NCBI RefSeq assembly: GCF_016026235.1
Contig: NZ_CP065613.1
Direction: 5' to 3' (one strand)
Length of the DNA stretch: 64,000 bases
From: Escherichia coli
GTDB taxonomy: Bacteria; Pseudomonadota; Gammaproteobacteria; Enterobacterales; Enterobacteriaceae
Positions within the stretch are counted from its first letter, which is position 1. Every line of letters starts with the position of its first letter. A program made the translations under genes and the position numbers. Below the pieces are notes generated by a model. It made no database searches and had not been told where the DNA came from. It worked only from the letters and a program-made list of their open reading frames with translations. Shown here one piece after another: positions 2,344 to 50,829 of this stretch.

Positions 2344-3399
2344 TTACGCGCAGATAAAGTCCAGCACGTCCTTCATGCTTCCCTGTTTGTTCATCACGTC
2401 AAAACTTGCGCATTCGGTCTTCTGTTCGTAGACCGTATTCATATTTTCGCGAAGCGTTGTAATACGCTGCACCGCCACGTCTAACTGCCGGGTGCCATTA
2501 ATGGGTTCATAGAAGGCCGCAGCCAGAGAACGCGGTTGATCGGTGCCTTTTTCCGCCAGCGCCCAGGAAGCATAGGCACGGCTGGCAAAGCTATTTTGTT
2601 TACCGGTTGGGGAAACTTTAAGCGCGGCTTCCGTAAAAGCGCGTATGGTCTGATTAGCTAACGCTTCGTCACCGCCGAGGTTTTCTACCAGCAGATCTTT
2701 ATCAATGCAGATATAGGTGTAGAAAAGTGCTGAACCGAATCCGGTTTCTCCGAGATGCCCGGCACCGGCATCTTCAGAGGCCTAGCGCAAATCATCAACG
2801 GCGGTGAAAAAATCATCTTCGACAATCGTTTCACTGACACCAAACGCATGCGCGACCTGGCAGGCGGCTTCAACATTAAACTCAGGTTTATTCGCCAGCA
2901 TACGACCAAACATAGCGATATCTACCGCTATACGGTCTTTACGTAACAACGCGAGATCTTCCTCTTTTGGCGCGCGCTTTTCTTCTGCCAGTTGATGGGC
3001 CAGCGCTTTTACGGCGTCAAATTCTGCCGGGCTGATATGAACTAATTGTTCAGTTTCGGCGTTAGTGAGCGGATCTTTTGGTTTTTTGTCGTTTTTAGCT
3101 TTCCCAAGATAATCCGCAATTTTTGCCGCCCATTCGATGGCTTTTTTCTCTTCGATGCCTTTCTCAATCAGGATAGTTGCCGCCTCACGCGCAATTCGCC
3201 CACTGCGAATACCAATATGGCCCGCCAGTGCCTGTTCAAAAAGTGCAGAAGTGCGCCACGCACGTTTCAGACTTTGTGAGGAAACGCGCAGACGCGTTGC
3301 ACCACCCAGTACCACAGTTTTTGGCGCACCAGTATCATCACGGTTAAGGTTGGCAGCAGGGTAAGCGGTTAACAAATGAAGCTGAATAAATGTTGTCAT
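2344..3399 (-). pseudogene. casC: CasC / Cas7e with an in-frame TAG at 2784..2782 (codon 206 of 351)
   Basis: Track ORF 2782..3399 ends ...FTAVDDLR then TAG; same frame continues ASEDAGAGHLGETGFGSALFYTYICIDKDLLVENLGG... to TAA at 2346..2344; both halves align to one Cas7e (K-12 ...FTAVDDLQEQGSAHLG...NLAQLQENLGG). Confidence 0.85.
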
Positions 3400-3413
3400 G
3401 AGATAGTCCTTTA

Positions 3414-3950
3414 TTAATTTTGTTCGTTATCGGCGTCGCCAGCCTGGTAATATTCCAGTGCCCAGCGGATACGGATAAATTCGGTTGGCCGCTGCTGGCG
3501 GCGGTGATGATTGAGCAGGTCGTCGCTCTCCTGGCACCAGCGGAAAATATCTTCTGCCAAAGAGATAAGATTGACGGAACCGTTTAATAATTTGACCGCG
3601 CGACGTAACTGACGCAGTAAATCATCCGGCGTTTTTACTGCCGACAGGCGAGTAAAACGCCCCTCCGACATTACCGCCGCCAGCTGCGCGGCAAAAGGCT
3701 GCCGTTCATCAATGGCTTTTACATTGGCGCTAACTGCGGCGACCAGCGCCAGTGCGGTAAAACGCCACTCTTGTGCTTCAATTTTCCACAAAGTGTGGGT
3801 CTGCATCAGCAGAGAACGAAACCCTTCTGACAAGCAAACATCATTAACCGTTGTGCTACGCCGCAGACTGGCACGATTGCCGCGTTTAGCCTGCAACTCT
3901 TCGTGCCATTTACGCAGCGTGGCTTTGTGCTCCTCTTTTACAATACTCAT
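3414..3950 (-). CDS. casB: CasB / Cse2 small Cascade subunit, 178 aa
   Basis: Size and position between casA and casC in a I-E operon; sequence diverged from K-12 CasB so the call rests mainly on synteny. Confidence 0.7.
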   Translation of the reverse strand: MSIVKEEHKATLRKWHEELQAKRGNRASLRRSTTVNDVCLSEGFRSLLMQTHTLWKIEAQEWRFTALALVAAVSANVKAIDERQPFAAQLAAVMSEGRFTRLSAVKTPDDLLRQLRRAVKLLNGSVNLISLAEDIFRWCQESDDLLNHHRRQQRPTEFIRIRWALEYYQAGDADNEQN

Positions 3951-8476: not shown

Positions 8477-9770
8477 CTGAGGGATCCCCAGAAAATTTAG
8501 TAAACCATTATCATATTGGTATACCGTTGCTGTAGAACTTTCAGCCCTGCGTCAAGTGACAGTGTGTTTAGTATGAGTGGAGAATGTCGAATCACATTCT
8601 CCGCCAGTTTTAATAACGAGATGACTCGCCTGTGCTTCACTGTATTTGCCTGATATTTATGATGTATCCCTTTGTTTTCCAGGCTGAAACCGCTTAACCA
8701 CATAATGATACTGGCTAATGTTGCGATCAGACTCAATACCGTGACCCGCCCGGATGAATGACTGGCACCAAACCGTAGTCCAAATCCCCAGCGAGGATTT
8801 TTTTCATCCCTGAAATTTTGCTCAATTTGCATTCTACGGCTGTATAATTTCATTACCTGTTTTGGCGAGAACTCAGTACTGTTTGTGAAAATAAACCATG
8901 GTGATTTCCCGGCAGTACGAGCTTTAGCCGTCACCGATGGTCTGGTTGCTCTTTCCTTCGAGCGTTTAAATCTACGACCTTTAGGCTTACTTTTATAAAG
9001 ATAAAAATGCCCTTCATGTTGTGCATTTTTATCTCGACCCAGCAGGCCTTCACCTAAATAAATTGCTGTCGTTGATGCTTTTGTGCCTGAGTCCGACACC
9101 TTTTCCCAGCCATTACCAACATTGTAATAATGATTGCCCAGTACCCGGCAAATATAGGTCCAGCCACGGGAGCGGAGCTGTTGGAACCATCGCCCCTGAA
9201 AACCGGCATCTGTAATAACAATGACATCAGTCCCGGGGGAAAAGCACTCAGCAAGCGATTCCAGAAAACGCTCATGTACATCTGCATTCGCTGTCTGTGA
9301 TGATGGAACGACACAACTCATCAACGGTAAAGAACGCCCGTCACATGCCAGGCTTGCCCGCAAAAGCTGAAAACGAGAGGCATGATAAGCACTCCAGTCA
9401 ATGAGTATCACAACACGAGACATTCCCCGCGTAATCTTTTGGGTAATTCGCTGAAAAATGGTGGAAACCTCATTTTGCAAATGTCGATTCCCCAACAGTC
9501 GATCCACCCGCTTTATTTTGTTTTTAACTGATGCCGTACCGGTTAAATGACGCCCGATACTGGTAAGTGTGAGGGAAGCGCCATTTATTACAGCATTAGT
9601 TGCGTCAATCAGTGATTTTTGACGGTAAAGATGCAAAGGGGCCAGTATGTTGTTAAGGAAATTTTGGCATAATGAACGTGCAGGCATAGTGGTGATCTCC
9701 TTGAAATTGTTAGCACAATCAATTAGATCACATCTCACTATGCCTGTCTTGTTTTCTGGGGATTCCTCAG
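8477..9770 (-). mobile_element. IS4-family, IS10-like insertion sequence (about 1.29 kb); boundaries approximate
   Basis: Imperfect terminal inverted repeats CTGAGGGATCCCC (8477..) and GGGGATTCCTCAG (..9770) resemble IS10 ends; encloses an IS10-like transposase; the 9-bp flanks do not match (no target-site duplication). Confidence 0.75.
8497..9687 (-). CDS. IS10-like DDE transposase, 396 aa (start at MPARSL, inside the IS)
   Basis: Segments ...KIKRVDRLLGNRHL... and ...YSRRMQIEQNFRDEKNP...KYQANTV... closely parallel the IS10 transposase (KRIDRLLGNRHL, YSKRMQIEETFRDLKSP, HFQANTV). Confidence 0.85.
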   Translation of the reverse strand: MPARSLCQNFLNNILAPLHLYRQKSLIDATNAVINGASLTLTSIGRHLTGTASVKNKIKRVDRLLGNRHLQNEVSTIFQRITQKITRGMSRVVILIDWSAYHASRFQLLRASLACDGRSLPLMSCVVPSSQTANADVHERFLESLAECFSPGTDVIVITDAGFQGRWFQQLRSRGWTYICRVLGNHYYNVGNGWEKVSDSGTKASTTAIYLGEGLLGRDKNAQHEGHFYLYKSKPKGRRFKRSKERATRPSVTAKARTAGKSPWFIFTNSTEFSPKQVMKLYSRRMQIEQNFRDEKNPRWGFGLRFGASHSSGRVTVLSLIATLASIIMWLSGFSLENKGIHHKYQANTVKHRRVISLLKLAENVIRHSPLILNTLSLDAGLKVLQQRYTNMIMVY

Positions 9771-9990
9771 GGGCGATCCTCCAGTTCAAATATAAGGTCA
9801 GAACCTGCATGGTTTATATCAGACATCCCTTCACTCCTTTTAAAGTAAATTTGATCATCTGAATTAGTAAAATAAATTCCCACGAATTTGGGGCGCAGGA
9901 CGCCTTGAGAACGGCTTATCTCATTTTCGCAGTCACTATTTAGTCATCGTTCAAACAGAGAAACAGGCCGCCGAAGCGGCCATTTATTAT

Positions 9991-19937: not shown

Positions 19938-21563
19938 ATGAATATTTTCACAGAGGCTGCAAAACTCGAAGAGCAAAATTGTCCGTTTGCGATGGCGCAA
20001 ATTGTTGATAGCCGAGGCTCGACTCCCCGCCATTCTGCACAAATGTTAGTGCGCGCCGATGGTTCTATCGTCGGTACAATTGGTGGCGGAATGGTTGAGC
20101 GGAAGGTGATTGAAGAGTCACTTCAGGCATTGCAGGAACGTAAGCCGCGATTATTCCATGGACGTATGGCTCGTAACGGTGCGGATGCTGTCGGGTCAGA
20201 TTGTGGAGGTGCAATGTCAGTATTTATCAGCGTCCATGGTATGCGTCCACGTCTGGTGTTGATTGGCGCGGGGCATGTCAACCGGGCGATAGCCCAGAGT
20301 GCCGCGCTATTAGGATTTGATATTGCCGTTGCCGATATTTATCGCGAAAGCCTCAATCCTGAACTATTCCCACCATCAACCACGCTTCTCCATGCTGAGT
20401 CGTTTGGTGCGGCAGTGGAAGCACTGGATATTCGCCCTGATAATTTTGTCCTGATTGCCACGAATAATCAGGATCGTGAAGCCCTCGACAAACTCATTGA
20501 ACAGCCCATTGCATGGTTGGGGTTGCTGGCAAGTCGCCGCAAGGTTCAGCTTTTCCTGCGTCAATTGCGTGAGAAAGGCGTGGCTGAAGAACATATTGCC
20601 CGTTTACATGCGCCCGTTGGTTACAACATAGGTGCGGAAACGCCGCAGGAGATCGCCATCAGCGTGCTGGCAGAAATATTACAGGTGAAAAATAACGCGC
20701 CGGGTGGGCTGATGATGAAACCTTCTCATCCTTCCGGACACCAGCTGGTGATGATTCGCGGTGCGGGAGATATCGCCAGTGGTGTGGCGCTACGTCTGTA
20801 TCATGCGGGTTTTAAAGTGATCATGCTGGAAGTGGAAAAACCGACAGTGATTCGTTGTACCGTGGCGTTTGCCCAGGCCGTGTTCGATGGCGAAATGACG
20901 GTCGAAGGCGTCACTGCTCGCCTGGCAACCAGCTCTGCGGAAGCGATGAAACTTACCGAACGCGGATTCATCCCTGTGATGGTAGATCCCGCCTGTTCAT
21001 TGCTTGATGAACTGAAACCGCTTTGCGTGGTGGACGCTATTCTGGCGAAACAGAATTTGGGAACGCGGGCAGATATGGCACCAGTAACAATCGCGCTTGG
21101 GCCGGGCTTTACTGCTGGGAAGGATTGTCATGCGGTAATTGAAACAAATCGCGGGCACTGGCTCGGTCAGGTGATTTACTCTGGTTGTGCGCAGGAGAAT
21201 ACCGGTGTTCCTGGCAATATTATGGGGCATACCACCCGACGGGTGATCCGTGCTCCTGCTGCAGGCATTATGCGATCCAACGTGAAATTAGGCGATCTGG
21301 TGAAAGAGGGCGATGTGATTGCCTGGATTGGTGAGCATGAAATTAAAGCACCGTTGACGGGGATGGTGCGTGGCTTGTTGAACGACGGCCTGGCAGTGGT
21401 TGGTGGTTTTAAAATTGGTGATATCGATCCTCGTGGTGAAACCGCTGATTTCACCAGCGTTTCTGATAAAGCCCGGGCGATTGGCGGCGGCGTACTTGAG
21501 GCGTTAATGATGTTGATGCATCAGGGCGTTAAAGCGACAAAAGAAGTGCTGGAAGTGGCTTAA
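19938..21563 (+). CDS. yqeB: XdhC/CoxI-family maturation protein, 541 aa
   Basis: Size and synteny with K-12 yqeB. Confidence 0.85.
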   Translation: MNIFTEAAKLEEQNCPFAMAQIVDSRGSTPRHSAQMLVRADGSIVGTIGGGMVERKVIEESLQALQERKPRLFHGRMARNGADAVGSDCGGAMSVFISVHGMRPRLVLIGAGHVNRAIAQSAALLGFDIAVADIYRESLNPELFPPSTTLLHAESFGAAVEALDIRPDNFVLIATNNQDREALDKLIEQPIAWLGLLASRRKVQLFLRQLREKGVAEEHIARLHAPVGYNIGAETPQEIAISVLAEILQVKNNAPGGLMMKPSHPSGHQLVMIRGAGDIASGVALRLYHAGFKVIMLEVEKPTVIRCTVAFAQAVFDGEMTVEGVTARLATSSAEAMKLTERGFIPVMVDPACSLLDELKPLCVVDAILAKQNLGTRADMAPVTIALGPGFTAGKDCHAVIETNRGHWLGQVIYSGCAQENTGVPGNIMGHTTRRVIRAPAAGIMRSNVKLGDLVKEGDVIAWIGEHEIKAPLTGMVRGLLNDGLAVVGGFKIGDIDPRGETADFTSVSDKARAIGGGVLEALMMLMHQGVKATKEVLEVA

Positions 21564-34938: not shown

Positions 34939-35012
34939 GCGGGCGTAGTTCAATGGTAGAACGAGAGCTTCCCAAGCTCTATACGAGGGTTCGATTCCCT
35001 TCGCCCGCTCCA
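34939..35012 (+). tRNA. glyU: tRNA-Gly (anticodon CCC)
   Basis: 74-nt GCGGGCGTAGTTCAATGGTAGAACGAGAGCTTCCCAAGCTCTATACGAGGGTTCGATTCCCTTCGCCCGCTCCA with 7-bp acceptor stem, CCC anticodon loop, T-loop GGTTCGATTCC and 3' CCA. Confidence 0.9.
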
Positions 35013-35301: not shown

Positions 35302-35356
35302 GGTGATGCTGCCAACTTACTGATTTAGTGTATGATGGTGTTTTTGAGGTGCTCCA

Positions 35357-35632
35357 GTGGCTTCTGTTTCTATCAGCTGTCCCTCCTGTTCAGCTACTGA
35401 CGGGGTGGTGCGTAACGGCAAAAGCACCGCCGGACATCAGCGCTATCTCTGCTCTCACTGCCGTAAAACATGGCAACTGCAGTTCACTTACACCGCTTCT
35501 CAACCCGGTACGCACCAGAAAATCATTGATATGGCCATGAATGGCGTTGGATGCCGGGCAACTGCCCGCATTATGGGCGTTGGCCTCAACACGATTTTAC
35601 GTCACTTAAAAAACTCAGGCCGCAGTCGGTAA
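35357..35632 (+). CDS. insA: IS1 InsA, 91 aa
   Basis: Protein [43 protein letters not shown]... is the IS1 InsA sequence. Confidence 0.9.
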
Positions 35633-36054
35633 CCTCGCGCATACAGCCGGGCAGTGACGTCATCGTCTGCGCGGAAATGGACGAACAGTGGGGCTATGTC
35701 GGGGCTAAATCGCGCCAGCGCTGGCTGTTTTACGCGTATGACAGTCTCCGGAAGACGGTTGTTGCGCACGTATTCGGTGAACGCACTATGGCGACGCTGG
35801 GGCGTCTTATGAGCCTGCTGTCACCCTTTGACGTGGTGATATGGATGACGGATGGCTGGCCGCTGTATGAATCCCGCCTGAAGGGAAAGCTGCACGTAAT
35901 CAGCAAGCGATATACGCAGCGAATTGAGCGGCATAACCTGAATCTGAGGCAGCACCTGGCACGGCTGGGACGGAAGTCGCTGTCGTTCTCAAAATCGGTG
36001 GAGCTGCATGACAAAGTCATCGGGCATTATCTGAACATAAAACACTATCAATAA
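35551..36054 (+). CDS. insB: IS1 InsB reading frame (expressed as InsAB' by frameshifting)
   Basis: 167-aa ORF overlapping insA, typical IS1 organisation. Confidence 0.85.
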
Positions 36055-36069
36055 GTTGGAGTCATTACC

Positions 36070-44274: not shown

Positions 44275-44357
44275 CCCAGAGGTATTGATAGGTGAAGTCA
44301 ACTTCGGGTTGAGCACATGAATTACACCAGCCTGCGCAGATGCGCAGGTTTTTTTTT
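44275..44357 (+). ncRNA. omrB: OmrA/OmrB-family small RNA, copy 1 (probably OmrB by length)
   Basis: Starts CCCAGAGGTATTGATAGGTGA (conserved Omr 5' end), ends in hairpin CCTGCGCAGATGCGCAGG plus T9; lies between galR and aas. Confidence 0.8.
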
Positions 44358-44471: not shown

Positions 44472-44559
44472 CCCAGAGGTATTGATTGGTGAGATTATTC
44501 GGTACGCTCTTCGTACCCTGTCTCTTGCACCAACCTGCGCGGATGCGCAGGTTTTTTTT
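44472..44559 (+). ncRNA. omrA: OmrA/OmrB-family small RNA, copy 2 (probably OmrA by length)
   Basis: Starts CCCAGAGGTATTGATTGGTGA, ends in hairpin CCTGCGCGGATGCGCAGG plus T8; shares 5' and 3' ends with copy 1 but differs in the middle. Confidence 0.8.
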
Positions 44560-48023: not shown

Positions 48024-49064
48024 TTATGGTGCAGGATAAGTATAAACCTGATGCACCGCTTCAATTTCAGCTAAAACTTCTTCGCTCAACTCCAGATGCA
48101 AACTTTCGACGTTAGTTTTCAGCTGCTCCATCGTGGTTGCGCCCAGCAGAGTGCTGGCAACAAACGGTTGACGGCGTACAAAAGCGAGCGCCAGCTGAGC
48201 AGGATCCAGCCCATGACGTCTGGCAATATCAACATACGCCGCGACGGCTTTTTGCGTTTGCTCACCGCTATAGCGGGTGAACCGACTAAAGAGCGTATTA
48301 CGTGCGCCAGCGGGTTTTGCACCGTTGAGATATTTCCCGGTCAGCGTGCCGAAACCCAGGCACGAATAGGCCAGCAGTTCGACCCCTTCATACTGGCTGA
48401 CTTCTGCCAGACCTACTTCAAAACTGCGGTTTAACAGACTGTAAGGGTTCTGAATGGTGACAATACGCGGCAGATCGTGTTTGTCCGCCAGATGCAGGTA
48501 GCGCATTACGCCAAATGCAGTTTCGTTCGACACGCCGATATAACGAATTTTTCCCGCTCGTTGGTACTCTGCCAGTGCGTCCAGCGTATCCAGCAGCGAA
48601 ACCGCAGGCGCAGAATCTGTCCAGCTATAACCGAGTTTGCCGAAGCAGTTGGTTGGGCGCTGCGGCCAGTGCACCTGATAAAGATCGAGGTAATCAGTCT
48701 GCAGACGCTTGAGGCTGTCATGCAACGCTTCGCGGATATTCTTCCGATCCAGCGCCTGATCCGGGCGGATGCCCTTGTCATTATTGCGCGACGGTCCGCT
48801 CACTTTGGAGGCGATAATTAACTTTTCGCGGCTGCCATGTTTCGCCAGCCAGTTGCCGACGTAGGTTTCGGTTAACCCTTGCGTTTCGGGGCGCGGAGGT
48901 ACTGGGTACATTTCGGCAACGTCGATAAGGTTAATGCCCTGAGCGACGGCATAGTCGAGTTGTGCGTGGGCGTCGGCTTCGCTGTTCTGTTCACCAAACG
49001 TCATCGTGCCAAGCCCCAGCGTGCTGACTTCCAGCGAACTGTGGGGTATACGGTGATATTGCAT
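48024..49064 (-). CDS. tas: Aldo-keto reductase, 346 aa (start MQYHRIPHSSL)
   Basis: Matches Tas; the track ORF extends artificially upstream into IS4. Confidence 0.9.
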   Translation of the reverse strand: MQYHRIPHSSLEVSTLGLGTMTFGEQNSEADAHAQLDYAVAQGINLIDVAEMYPVPPRPETQGLTETYVGNWLAKHGSREKLIIASKVSGPSRNNDKGIRPDQALDRKNIREALHDSLKRLQTDYLDLYQVHWPQRPTNCFGKLGYSWTDSAPAVSLLDTLDALAEYQRAGKIRYIGVSNETAFGVMRYLHLADKHDLPRIVTIQNPYSLLNRSFEVGLAEVSQYEGVELLAYSCLGFGTLTGKYLNGAKPAGARNTLFSRFTRYSGEQTQKAVAAYVDIARRHGLDPAQLALAFVRRQPFVASTLLGATTMEQLKTNVESLHLELSEEVLAEIEAVHQVYTYPAP

Positions 49065-49148
49065 AGCCGTTTCCTTTTTATAATCACGACATAAGGAATA
49101 TAAAAATGGCAGAGGGAAGGGAAAAGGGAAAGAGAAAAATCTTAAGGC

Positions 49149-49161
49149 CAGCCGGATGCTG
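49149..49161. repeat. IS4 target-site duplication, left copy (CAGCCGGATGCTG)
   Basis: 13-bp direct repeat flanking IS4, identical to 50588..50600. Confidence 0.7.
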
Positions 49162-50587
49162 TAATGCCAGTCAGTTAAGCAACTGACTGGCTCTTTTTCG
49201 GGGCTGTGGGGTATTTCCAGGGCCTCTCCTTTACCACTCTCGGGAAGGCCCTTCCCCTTCTCGTCGGTAATTTCACAAGTTGTCCCATACTTGCAAGATC
49301 GCGCATCAGCTCCGGTATACGTCCCGGTGAAGCGCCCTGCAATGTCATCAGCATTCTCATCACCATTCCGCATGATTCTGAGAAACTCAGTTGATTCGGC
49401 CAGTAACCTTTCAGATGTTCCGCCATTTTAATCATCTGATATCTCACCAGATTATAAGCCAGTAAGACACCCCACAGCTCTTGCTCCACAAGCTCCGGCT
49501 TTTTACTTCTCAGCGTCAGCCTGCTCAGTTGCATCGTCTGTTTTATCTCCCTGTATCCCAGTTCGATTTCCCAGCGATGACTGTACAGATCCGCCATTTC
49601 TCCTCCGGGGAAGCGCATGGCGTCCGTCATCGACGTCAGCAGATGGCAGACTTTTCCTTTGCGCGTCACGGTCAGCAGGCGGGCTGTCACTTCATTTCCC
49701 AGTCCCGGCCACTTTTTTCGTGCCTGCGGGCTGGTTTTCAGCTTCACCAGATGATCGCCTTTACCCAGTTTTCTGAGCTCTTCATATTGCGCTCCCTTTC
49801 TGAGAGGTATCATCCAGTGGCGGTGTTCTCCCGCCAGGCTCCAGGCATTTAACAGTCCCAGTGAGTAATAACCTTTATCCATTAACGTCAGAGTGTTATC
49901 GCCGGTTTGTTCTATAAGTTGCTCAGCAAGCTCATTTTCGCTGTTCTTCATCGTGCCGAAGGCTGCAGCCGTCAGCAGATGGCTGGTCAGTTCCATCTGG
50001 CAGACCATTTTGACCTGCGGGTAGAGCGCCGGGTTCCCGGCATGTGTCTGGCGGGGGAAGGCTGCATCGTTCTCTGGTGTATCCGGTGTGCGCCAGAACA
50101 CACCATCGATGGCCAGCAGGGTCAGGCCGCACCAGTGCGGATGCGGCGTGGCGTTATGCCAGAGCTGCGCTGTTTTCGTGAACACGCGGCGGACAGCCTC
50201 ACTTCCCAGGCGCTGGCGGGCCTGAATAACGGCACTGGGGGCAACGAAGGGGCGATTGCCCGGCAGCATGATGTCCAGGCGATTCACAATCTGGTGAAGA
50301 GGTTCTTTACGCTCAAGCGCCATGCCAACAATACACCAGACCATCATTTCGAGGGGAAGACGGCGCTTGCGTAGCGTTACAGTACCTGATTCGGCAAGGC
50401 AACGAGAGATGAGTTCGGGGTCGAGGTAATCCCCCAGAGAAGTCAGTGGGTTACGCAGAGAATCGTAACGGGATACCAGATCAAGAGCCTGTCCAATGTG
50501 CATAAAAAAATCCGGAAACAAGTGAGCGTTTCCGGATTCTTACACAGCCACTGGATCGGTCAACTGATCCTTAACTGATCGGCATTA
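49162..50587 (-). mobile_element. IS4 (1426 bp)
   Basis: Terminal inverted repeats TAATGCCAGTCAGTTAAG (left) and CTTAACTGATCGGCATTA (right); encodes the IS4 transposase; flanked by a 13-bp direct repeat. Confidence 0.9.
49175..50503 (-). CDS. insG: IS4 transposase InsG, 442 aa (start [10 protein letters not shown])
   Basis: Sequence recognised as IS4 InsG. Confidence 0.9.
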
Positions 50588-50600
50588 CAGCCGGATGCTG
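50588..50600. repeat. IS4 target-site duplication, right copy (CAGCCGGATGCTG)
   Basis: Identical to 49149..49161. Confidence 0.7.
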
Positions 50601-50610
50601 ACCTTATTTG

Positions 50611-50829
50611 TTAACGTTCAATAATTTGCGAAACATCATCACGGTTAATTTGCATCGCGTTACCTTGCTGATCGTGATAACTCACCAGCCCGGTATCATC
50701 ATCAATTTCAGGTTTTCCATCGGTCAAAATCATACGGCCATCTTTGGTCGCCATGACGTAATCACTGGAACACCCGGAAACAGCAAACGCCAGTCCGACT
50801 GCAGAAATTATTACTGCCCATTTTTTCAT
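50611..50829 (-). CDS. ygdR: Small lipoprotein, 72 aa
   Basis: [23 protein letters not shown]... lipobox; synteny. Confidence 0.85.

Follow-up and report, generated by a model that had tools for sequence, protein, structure and literature searches.

The window analysed here, a stretch of 64,000 nucleotides of Escherichia coli DNA, carries a single IS4 copy, inserted between ygdR and tas. Both neighbours are intact: ygdR (50611..50829, − strand) encodes a 72-aa DUF903 lipoprotein and tas (48024..49064, − strand) a 346-aa NADP(H)-dependent aldo-keto reductase. Public records list this exact Tas protein under E. coli. The full element (49162..50587, − strand, 1426 bp) lies 23 bp from the ygdR stop codon (50611-50613), so that IS4 begins at base 24, and 97 bp from the tas ATG (49064). 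All three genes, ygdR, that of the transposase, and tas, lie on the − strand.

The insertion is bordered by a 13-mer, CAGCCGGATGCTG, which occurs exactly twice in the 64-kb window, once as the tas-proximal copy of the target-site duplication (49149..49161) and once as the ygdR-proximal copy (50588..50600); the chance of such a match at two fixed positions is about 4^-13. K-12 has a single copy of this 13-mer in an uninterrupted ygdR-tas spacer. In BLAST alignments, bases 21501-21513 of the K-12 locus (L016) are matched on either flank of IS4 in the window, the mark of a simple insertion that duplicated 13 bp of its target and rearranged nothing. The preliminary description, which had reported a complete 1426-bp IS4 between perfect 13-bp direct repeats, placed there by simple transposition in the same orientation as tas, is confirmed in each of these respects, as are its distances to the two genes.

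Alignment with the annotated IS4 of K-12 MG1655 (insG copy; NC_000913.3 4502090-4503515) is collinear over 1426 of 1426 bp, with 6 substitutions and no indels (1420/1426 bases, 99.6% identity). The two elements share the same ends and a single transposase ORF, and their transposases differ by 4 amino acids. The K-12 copy differs in its chromosomal site, yjgZ-nanX, and in its target duplication, which is 12 bp there versus 13 bp in the window; the target duplication of IS4 is described as 11-13 bp. The window element starts with TAATGCCAGTCAGTTAAG and ends with CTTAACTGATCGGCATTA, and its 18-bp terminal inverted repeats match at 16 of 18 positions, the repeat on the transposase 5' side lying at 50570..50587 (− strand; TAATGCCGATCAGTTAAG read inward) and that on the transposase 3' side at 49162..49179 (+ strand). 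IS4-like elements from many Enterobacterales share exactly the outermost 30 nt of the transposase 3' side. An Rfam search of the ygdR-tas spacer and IS4 returned no known RNA.

The transposase gene (49175..50503, − strand; ATG at 50503, stop at 49175-49177) is the single long ORF of IS4 and is uninterrupted, encoding 442 aa; an alternative TTG start at 50521, of the kind used by RefSeq for some copies, would give 448 aa. Two Pfam domains are recognized far above their cut-offs, PF13006 Nterm_IS4 (E 3e-33, 114 bits) and PF01609 DDE_Tnp_1 (E 8e-32, 111 bits, profile positions 3-200 of 200). The translation also contains, within a 15-residue stretch, the Y(2)R(3)E(6)K motif that is the signature of the IS4 family, for which a target duplication of about one helical turn (10-13 bp) is a further criterion (PMC2266710). 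Judged from its sequence, the element thus displays all the testable defining features of IS4 (IS4 family, IS4 subgroup), namely length identity, repeats, duplication, DDE domains, and motif. The identical transposase protein is present in more than 200 contigs in public data, and the window IS4 is 100% identical in nucleotide sequence to copies at other loci. One public record of this transposase allele bears the name 'IS4 ORF [Shigella flexneri]'.

The insertion site and IS4 target preference

Removal of the element and of one duplication copy reconstructs an empty site identical to that of K-12, in which the ygdR TAA is followed by CAAA, by TAAGGTCAGC ATCCG GCTGGCCTTA, and then by AGATTTTTCTC; a T-run, AGATTTTTCTCTTTCCC, lies downstream of the 3' arm in the gene direction. 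The predicted fold of this site is a 10-bp stem closing a 5-nt loop (−15.5 kcal/mol, z −3.3), which begins 4 nt past the ygdR stop and is followed by the U-run AAGAUUUUUCUCUUU. In an alignment of the ygdR-tas spacer, a hairpin and T-run occupy the corresponding position in Enterobacter, Cronobacter, Yokenella, and Salmonella, with base changes that keep the pairing. By its anatomy, the insertion target is the predicted intrinsic (rho-independent) terminator of ygdR. The duplicated 13 bp correspond to the inner four base pairs of this terminator plus its loop, so IS4 sits within the hairpin and leaves a remnant on either side. The ygdR-proximal remnant (50588..50606, − strand), deduced from the reconstruction and the K-12 empty site, retains the 5' arm TAAGGTCAGC in full together with the loop, but just 4 nt of the 3' arm, and is devoid of a U-run. 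In the tas-proximal remnant (49131..49161, − strand) the 5' arm is cut to 4 nt, the loop, the entire 3' arm, and the T-run survive, and the predicted stem is down to 4 bp. Among the genome-wide studies searched for transcript-end and operon data on ygdR and tas, PMC3415461 (an ortholog table) and PMC4161252 yielded nothing usable, and PMC6131387 and PMC3141248 make no mention of these genes. The preliminary description had passed over the target itself, that is, a ygdR terminator hairpin that matches the IS4 preference and appears to have been independently reused in other lineages.

IS4 has a single hot spot in galT, and Mayaux and colleagues reportedly described in 1984 an IS4 consensus, AAA-N20-TTT, together with an insertion into the pheST attenuator. 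The ygdR site resembles the latter in being a terminator-type hairpin, and both this site and the 65 sites described below fit an AAA-N19/20-TTT spacing. These 65 sites come from two sources. Other E. coli IS4 copies match the query for 13-18 bp past the IS ends, which made it possible to collect their flanks, giving nine sites: downstream of metK, eno, and argH, between rraA and zapB and between emrR and emrA, in a prophage, and inside trg, melR, and a glycosidase gene. The 30-nt IS4 end was in addition scanned in one genome per species, yielding 67 loci in many Enterobacterales, where the IS4-like elements have 75-90% identity to IS4 when complete. After duplicate removal, and with ygdR-tas left out, 65 distinct sites were retained, 9 from E. 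coli and 56 from IS4-like elements of other Enterobacterales.

Read toward the IS, the consensus of these sites has A at −20 to −17 in 72-82%, is C-rich at −12 to −9, and has G at −4 and −1 in 77-83%. A perfect stem of at least 4 bp with its 3' arm ending exactly at the junction is present at 57% of the 65 sites as opposed to 2.8% of random positions, and an A-run at 74% versus 8.5%. At sites with both flanks available, a T-run on the far side is the mirror image of this pattern, as downstream of metK (AAAAAGGC|CAGCGCGAGGCTG|GCCTTT), and the other IS4 copies examined have duplications of 12-14 bp. These figures demonstrate statistically an IS4-type target preference for an A-run, a short GC palindrome, and a T-run. 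The same sites are concentrated just behind genes: among the 56 with enough flank for this computation, 62.5% lie within 120 nt 3' of a gene end and outside long open frames (7.6% of random positions), and 25% lie inside a long open frame (67% of random positions). Conserved left and right target arms have been described in the IS4 subgroup by De Palmenaer et al. 2008 (PMC2266710). In the literature searched, we found no report of ygdR-tas as an IS4 hot spot and none of a quantified IS4 enrichment just past gene 3' ends.

A weight matrix built from the sites other than ygdR-tas and applied symmetrically to the reconstructed empty window ranks the real duplication, with coordinates and length both exact, third of the distinct sites and 6th when all 187,485 combinations of position and length are considered. 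Together with the consensus, this rank means that target preference explains the location of the insertion. The match is imperfect, the A-run at ygdR being at −27 to −23 and not at −20 to −17, and the two better-scoring window sites (around 9968 and 9009) are unoccupied. Three of the 10 E. coli sites examined are within coding sequences (trg, melR, and the glycosidase gene), so that a sequence match suffices and a working terminator is unnecessary. Extragenic palindromes are also the targets of IS1397 and ISKpn1, which insert into REP/BIME, and of ISRm22, an IS4-family member (PMC1525189). These elements resemble the present case in choosing GC-rich intergenic palindromes and thereby sparing genes, whereas the ygdR target is no repeated REP element but a one-off terminator hairpin bordered by A and T runs, and what is duplicated is its inner stem-loop.

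Recurrence and age of the insertion

Among 5426 complete E. coli genomes, the ygdR-tas spacer is uninterrupted in 5417, carries IS1 elsewhere in 1, and finds no match in 3. The remaining 5 (VR50, CUVM3, CPww7, AR_0013, and AF57) contain IS4 at the identical position, in the identical orientation and with the identical duplication. These five genomes hold three IS4 alleles and the window a fourth, with pairwise differences of 6-11 nt, and the occupied sequences, the window counted, fall into four flank haplotypes. Each allele has a zero-difference twin in another genome, at an unrelated locus: the VR50 copy is indistinguishable from the K-12, trg, and argH copies, those of CUVM3 and CPww7 from a metK-site copy, that of AR_0013 from the emrR-emrA copy of CE10, and that of the window from copies in E. 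coli CFSAN029787, RMDEC, and VL strains, including some on plasmids of about 290 kb. This argues for at least four independent insertions rather than one old insertion. By the evidence of alleles and haplotypes, then, the same bonds have been struck independently by four IS4 alleles in four E. coli backgrounds, and their repeated use is rationalized by the fit of the site to the IS4 preference for an A-run, a GC palindrome, and a T-run. IS4 itself was found in 2686 of the 5426 genomes; occupied genomes have query-matching IS4 at 5-19 places, compared with a median of one among IS4-positive genomes.

Over the window region, the best complete E. coli genome has at most 99.4% identity, and the window lineage accordingly appears to be missing from the complete RefSeq E. 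coli set. A Shigella origin, which this low identity and the S. flexneri name of the transposase allele had suggested, was rejected in view of the E. coli label of the exact Tas protein and the 100% identity of the IS4 allele to copies in CFSAN029787 and related E. coli strains. Two other assemblies are far closer. GCA_031665325.1 has 1 mismatch in 9 kb of flanks (99.99% identical) and is occupied, and the Logan assembly SRR13614867, with 3 mismatches and 1 gap in 9 kb of flanks, has an empty site; the insertion is therefore not fixed in the window's own lineage. The perfect duplication and the empty site of a near-identical relative both indicate that the insertion is recent. The earlier judgement that it was probably recent is thus borne out in relative terms, the spacer being uninterrupted in 5417 of 5426 genomes. 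AR_0013 and AF57 have an A-to-C change in one duplication copy, and their insertion may be older.

Predicted effects on ygdR and tas transcription

On the ygdR side, transcription entering the element would meet a hairpin and U-run internal to IS4 (50506..50541, − strand), a predicted barrier to ygdR transcription and translation that ends 3 nt before the transposase ATG. Folding gives a 14-bp stem (−23.5 kcal/mol, z −6.3), followed by UUUUUUU and the transposase AUG. This structure looks like an intrinsic terminator and would also bury the region before the start codon. The terminator scan of the − strand did not report the hairpin, which folding shows clearly, and we think that the omission is due to the stem extending into the U-run. 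A consensus scan points to a putative promoter for the transposase at 50536..50563 (− strand; TTGACC, a 16-nt spacer, TG, AAGAAT), whose predicted transcript start falls inside the hairpin loop; the RNA made from there is predicted to be unstructured. The ygdR mRNA would most likely gain about 90 nt and end at the IS4 5' hairpin, which makes read-through from ygdR to tas unlikely.

The transposase genes of IS10 and IS50 are protected from external transcription by 5' secondary structure (fold-back inhibition). IS4 is similar in having a strong hairpin that separates the transposase start from the IS end, and a predicted promoter that starts inside this hairpin, an arrangement of the IS10/IS50 type in which only outside transcripts would fold. 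It is unlike them in that its hairpin is also provided with a U-run, in the manner of a full intrinsic terminator. By analogy, the IS4 5' hairpin may shield the transposase gene from outside transcription; no report of such 5'-structure shielding of the IS4 transposase was found in the literature searched.

On the tas side, alignment of the spacer from six genera (E. coli, Salmonella, Enterobacter, Klebsiella, Cronobacter, and Yokenella) reveals a shared block, CTTTyCCCTTTT...CCCTCTGCCAT(g/t)TT(t/g)AT..TCCTT, that is much better conserved than the remaining spacer. It contains a TATAnT element with invariant A2 and T6 and sits 33-52 bp before the tas ATG, entirely within the retained 97 bp. 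In the window, the block CCCTCTGCCATTTTTATATTCCTT (49093..49116, − strand), with a −10-like TATATT at 49102-49097, is intact and constitutes a candidate tas promoter, which would place IS4 about 70 bp upstream of the predicted tas start. A promoter scan of the 97 bp between IS4 and tas returned no consensus promoter, and the −35 of the candidate block is weak. Since the conserved promoter-like block is entirely retained next to tas, the promoter displacement envisaged in the preliminary description looks unlikely, and tas expression is probably much as before the insertion.

The same description had also raised read-through into tas. From ygdR, this is argued against by the predicted stop at the IS4 hairpin and U-run, while read-out from the transposase gene may occur. 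The terminal 11-bp hairpin of IS4, which overlaps the transposase stop (49166..49191), is followed by a T-run only on the + strand and offers no U-run in the tas direction, and a 4-bp stem is all that is left of the terminator copy next to tas, which makes such read-out possible. Read-out of this kind would be the only plausible extra input for tas, and we assume it to be weak. An outward promoter at the IS4 end was considered and rejected, the promoter scan having found no consensus site there. In one array study, ygdR and tas were similarly induced on acid shift, which would fit common regulation or a degree of co-transcription and is the main ground for keeping some effect on tas in view. 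Co-transcription of ygdR and tas, if real, would be abolished by IS4.

Competing explanations and wider meaning

Based on the above data, we consider it very probable that an ordinary IS4 jumped into the ygdR terminator, a target of its preferred type, as a young insertion at a recurrent site that leaves tas largely unaffected. The DDE transposase of the element cut the 107-bp ygdR-tas spacer with a 13-bp stagger, the repair of which yielded the perfect CAGCCGGATGCTG duplication. The site was not random, being the GC-rich palindrome of the ygdR terminator, TAAGGTCAGC-ATCCG-GCTGGCCTTA, with its T-run. Splitting of this terminator would leave ygdR transcripts to stop at the hairpin and U-run of IS4 itself, and tas would retain the promoter-like block in the adjoining 97 bp.

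The shared position, orientation, and duplication of the six occupied sequences could also be read as the mark of one old ancestral insertion, inherited or recombined and since lost from nearly all E. coli, with no repeated hits. These IS4 copies have diverged by 0.4-0.8%, which is comparable to the divergence of their flanks, and the one mismatch between duplication copies in AR_0013 and AF57 indicates some age there. However, the copies are 0 nt from IS4 at unrelated loci and yet 6-11 nt from other ygdR-tas copies, the spacer is empty without a scar in 5417 of 5426 genomes and also in the relative at 3 mismatches and 1 gap per 9 kb, and a target model trained elsewhere places the site third in the window; descent from a single old insertion is therefore very improbable. 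A chance repeat or a misassembled IS4 copy has a negligible probability. Insertion sequences are frequent points of misassembly, and many draft contigs (L086) break in this IS4, but the same junctions recur in independent complete assemblies and in draft contigs that run from IS4 into tas, and the 13-bp duplication corresponds to exactly one K-12 copy.

A substantial change in tas expression, with the insertion kept by selection, is also unlikely, though somewhat less so than a single ancient event. It could come about through loss of ygdR-driven or activator input or through IS4-driven transcription of tas, and several observations are in its favor: IS4 is codirectional with tas, the transposase 3' hairpin is without a U-run and the tas-proximal stem has 4 bp, so that read-out is possible, the two genes behave alike in acid-shift induction, and four independent insertions share one orientation, for which the chance probability is 1/8. 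Yet the conserved TATAnT block is retained with IS4 some 70 bp above the predicted tas start, the scan detects no outward promoter-like site at the IS4 end, and the insertion is rare (5/5426) and not fixed in the window lineage. Target preference alone, moreover, accounts for the recurrence. Insertion of an ordinary IS4 into a preferred target, with little effect on tas, thus remains the reading that we favor.

The element, its mechanism, and its strong target preference are already known. What is added locally is the ygdR terminator as a target, the at least four independent hits upon it, and the 3'-of-gene enrichment across Enterobacterales. It is tempting to go further and to regard IS4 and its relatives across Enterobacterales as systematic terminator-homing elements, which would recognize the A-run, GC hairpin, and T-run, possibly as a structure and not as a sequence, would duplicate the inner stem-loop, and would replace the lost terminator with the hairpin and U-run at their own transposase-proximal end; we put this forward only tentatively, as an idea with somewhat less in its favor than against it. 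If it were true, insertions would have almost no effect on fitness, and a handful of terminators, the ygdR one among them, would be hit again and again.

At ygdR-tas itself the insertion appears to be of little consequence, both genes being intact and the tas upstream block kept. Because the site is polymorphic within one lineage, it is usable as a strain marker; because four alleles have been found at the same bonds, shared IS4 junctions between strains are no proof of common descent. The more general point is a modest one, namely that an insertion sequence may limit the damage to its host by landing just 3' of genes, in terminator-like palindromes.

The IS4 allele and its relatives

The IS4 allele in the ygdR-tas spacer (49162-50587) is 100% identical to copies in E. 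coli CFSAN029787, RMDEC332/364 and VL46 (NZ_CP011417.1 and others), where the element resides on chromosomes as well as on plasmids of about 290 kb. Its transposase appears in public records under the name 'IS4 ORF [Shigella flexneri]'. Among complete RefSeq E. coli, none is more than 99.4% identical to the chromosomal flanks of the window.

Beyond E. coli, the 30-nt IS4 end is kept exactly in IS4-like elements of many Enterobacterales (loci L017-L083), the bodies of which are only 75-90% identical. Kosakonia oryziphila has it at 16 sites, and it also occurs in Budvicia, Silvania, Buttiauxella, Dryocola, Yersinia thracica and Rosenbergiella, among others. Two further matches to this end lie in records labeled Chryseobacterium sp. 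18061 and an Oscillospiraceae MAG. At the Chryseobacterium match, the flank has exactly the sequence seen in Citrobacter sp. 18056, a genome from the same project, and the contig is therefore probably cross-contaminated.

Insertions and predicted targets

E. coli AR_0013 and AF57 carry IS4 at the same position between ygdR and tas. In both strains, the tas-proximal copy of the target duplication reads CAGCCGGCTGCTG vs CAGCCGGATGCTG in the other copy, a single mismatch at the equivalent of window position 49156, the insertion being otherwise identical. Such mismatched copies suggest either that the insertion in that lineage is an older event or that it mutated there later. A different element occupies the spacer of E. 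coli 2017.17.03CC (NZ_AP027829.1, in the region 2676-3495 of its locus): an IS1B, which lies approximately 41 bp nearer to tas than the IS4 target and within the conserved promoter-like region.

When the window was scored with the IS4 target matrix, a weight matrix built from 65 IS4-type sites excluding that of ygdR-tas, two sites outscored the real one, namely 9968-9979 (aaacaggCCGCCGAAGCGGccatttatt) and 9009-9021 (aaaaatGCCCTTCATGTTGtgcattttt). Both are unoccupied in the window and count as predicted targets of IS4.

The IS1 junction and RNA genes

A 768-bp IS1 (35302-36069; ends GGTGATGCTGCCAACTTACTGAT ... AAGTTGGAGTCATTACC) joins a truncated ygeQ to the final 180 nt of yqeF. It has no 9-bp target duplication, its flanks being GTGCGGCAC on one side and CGTCGGGTC on the other. 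Comparison with K-12 shows that approximately 14.2 kb is absent at this point (yqeF-yqeG-yqeHIJK-ygeF-ygeG-ygeH-...-ygeP), corresponding to the ETT2 remnant. The IS1-ygeQ junction is also present in other E. coli; the yqeF junction is not. The arrangement looks like the product of a deletion mediated by IS1. The tRNA gene known as glyU in K-12 (34939-35009) and the sRNA genes for OmrB (44275-44356) and OmrA (44472-44559) are at their expected positions, and neither the ygdR-tas spacer nor the IS4 yielded any Rfam match.

The region upstream of tas

A mechanical open reading frame of 449 codons (48024-49373, minus strand) starts inside IS4 and runs through the spacer into tas without a stop. 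Its frame is that of tas and differs from that of the IS4 transposase. It is probably meaningless, though the tas frame is open upstream, and one E. coli record (P0016) annotates Tas with an N-terminal extension, for a total of 381 aa.

In the alignment of this region (A1), an inverted repeat, TTGTCAGGAA-N3-5-CTGAC, separates the -10-like box from the start of tas in five genera: Salmonella, Enterobacter, Klebsiella, Cronobacter and Yokenella. E. coli is without 13 alignment columns of this repeat (window about 49066-49096). The inverted repeat could be an operator, or a hairpin in the 5'-UTR, that has been lost in E. coli.
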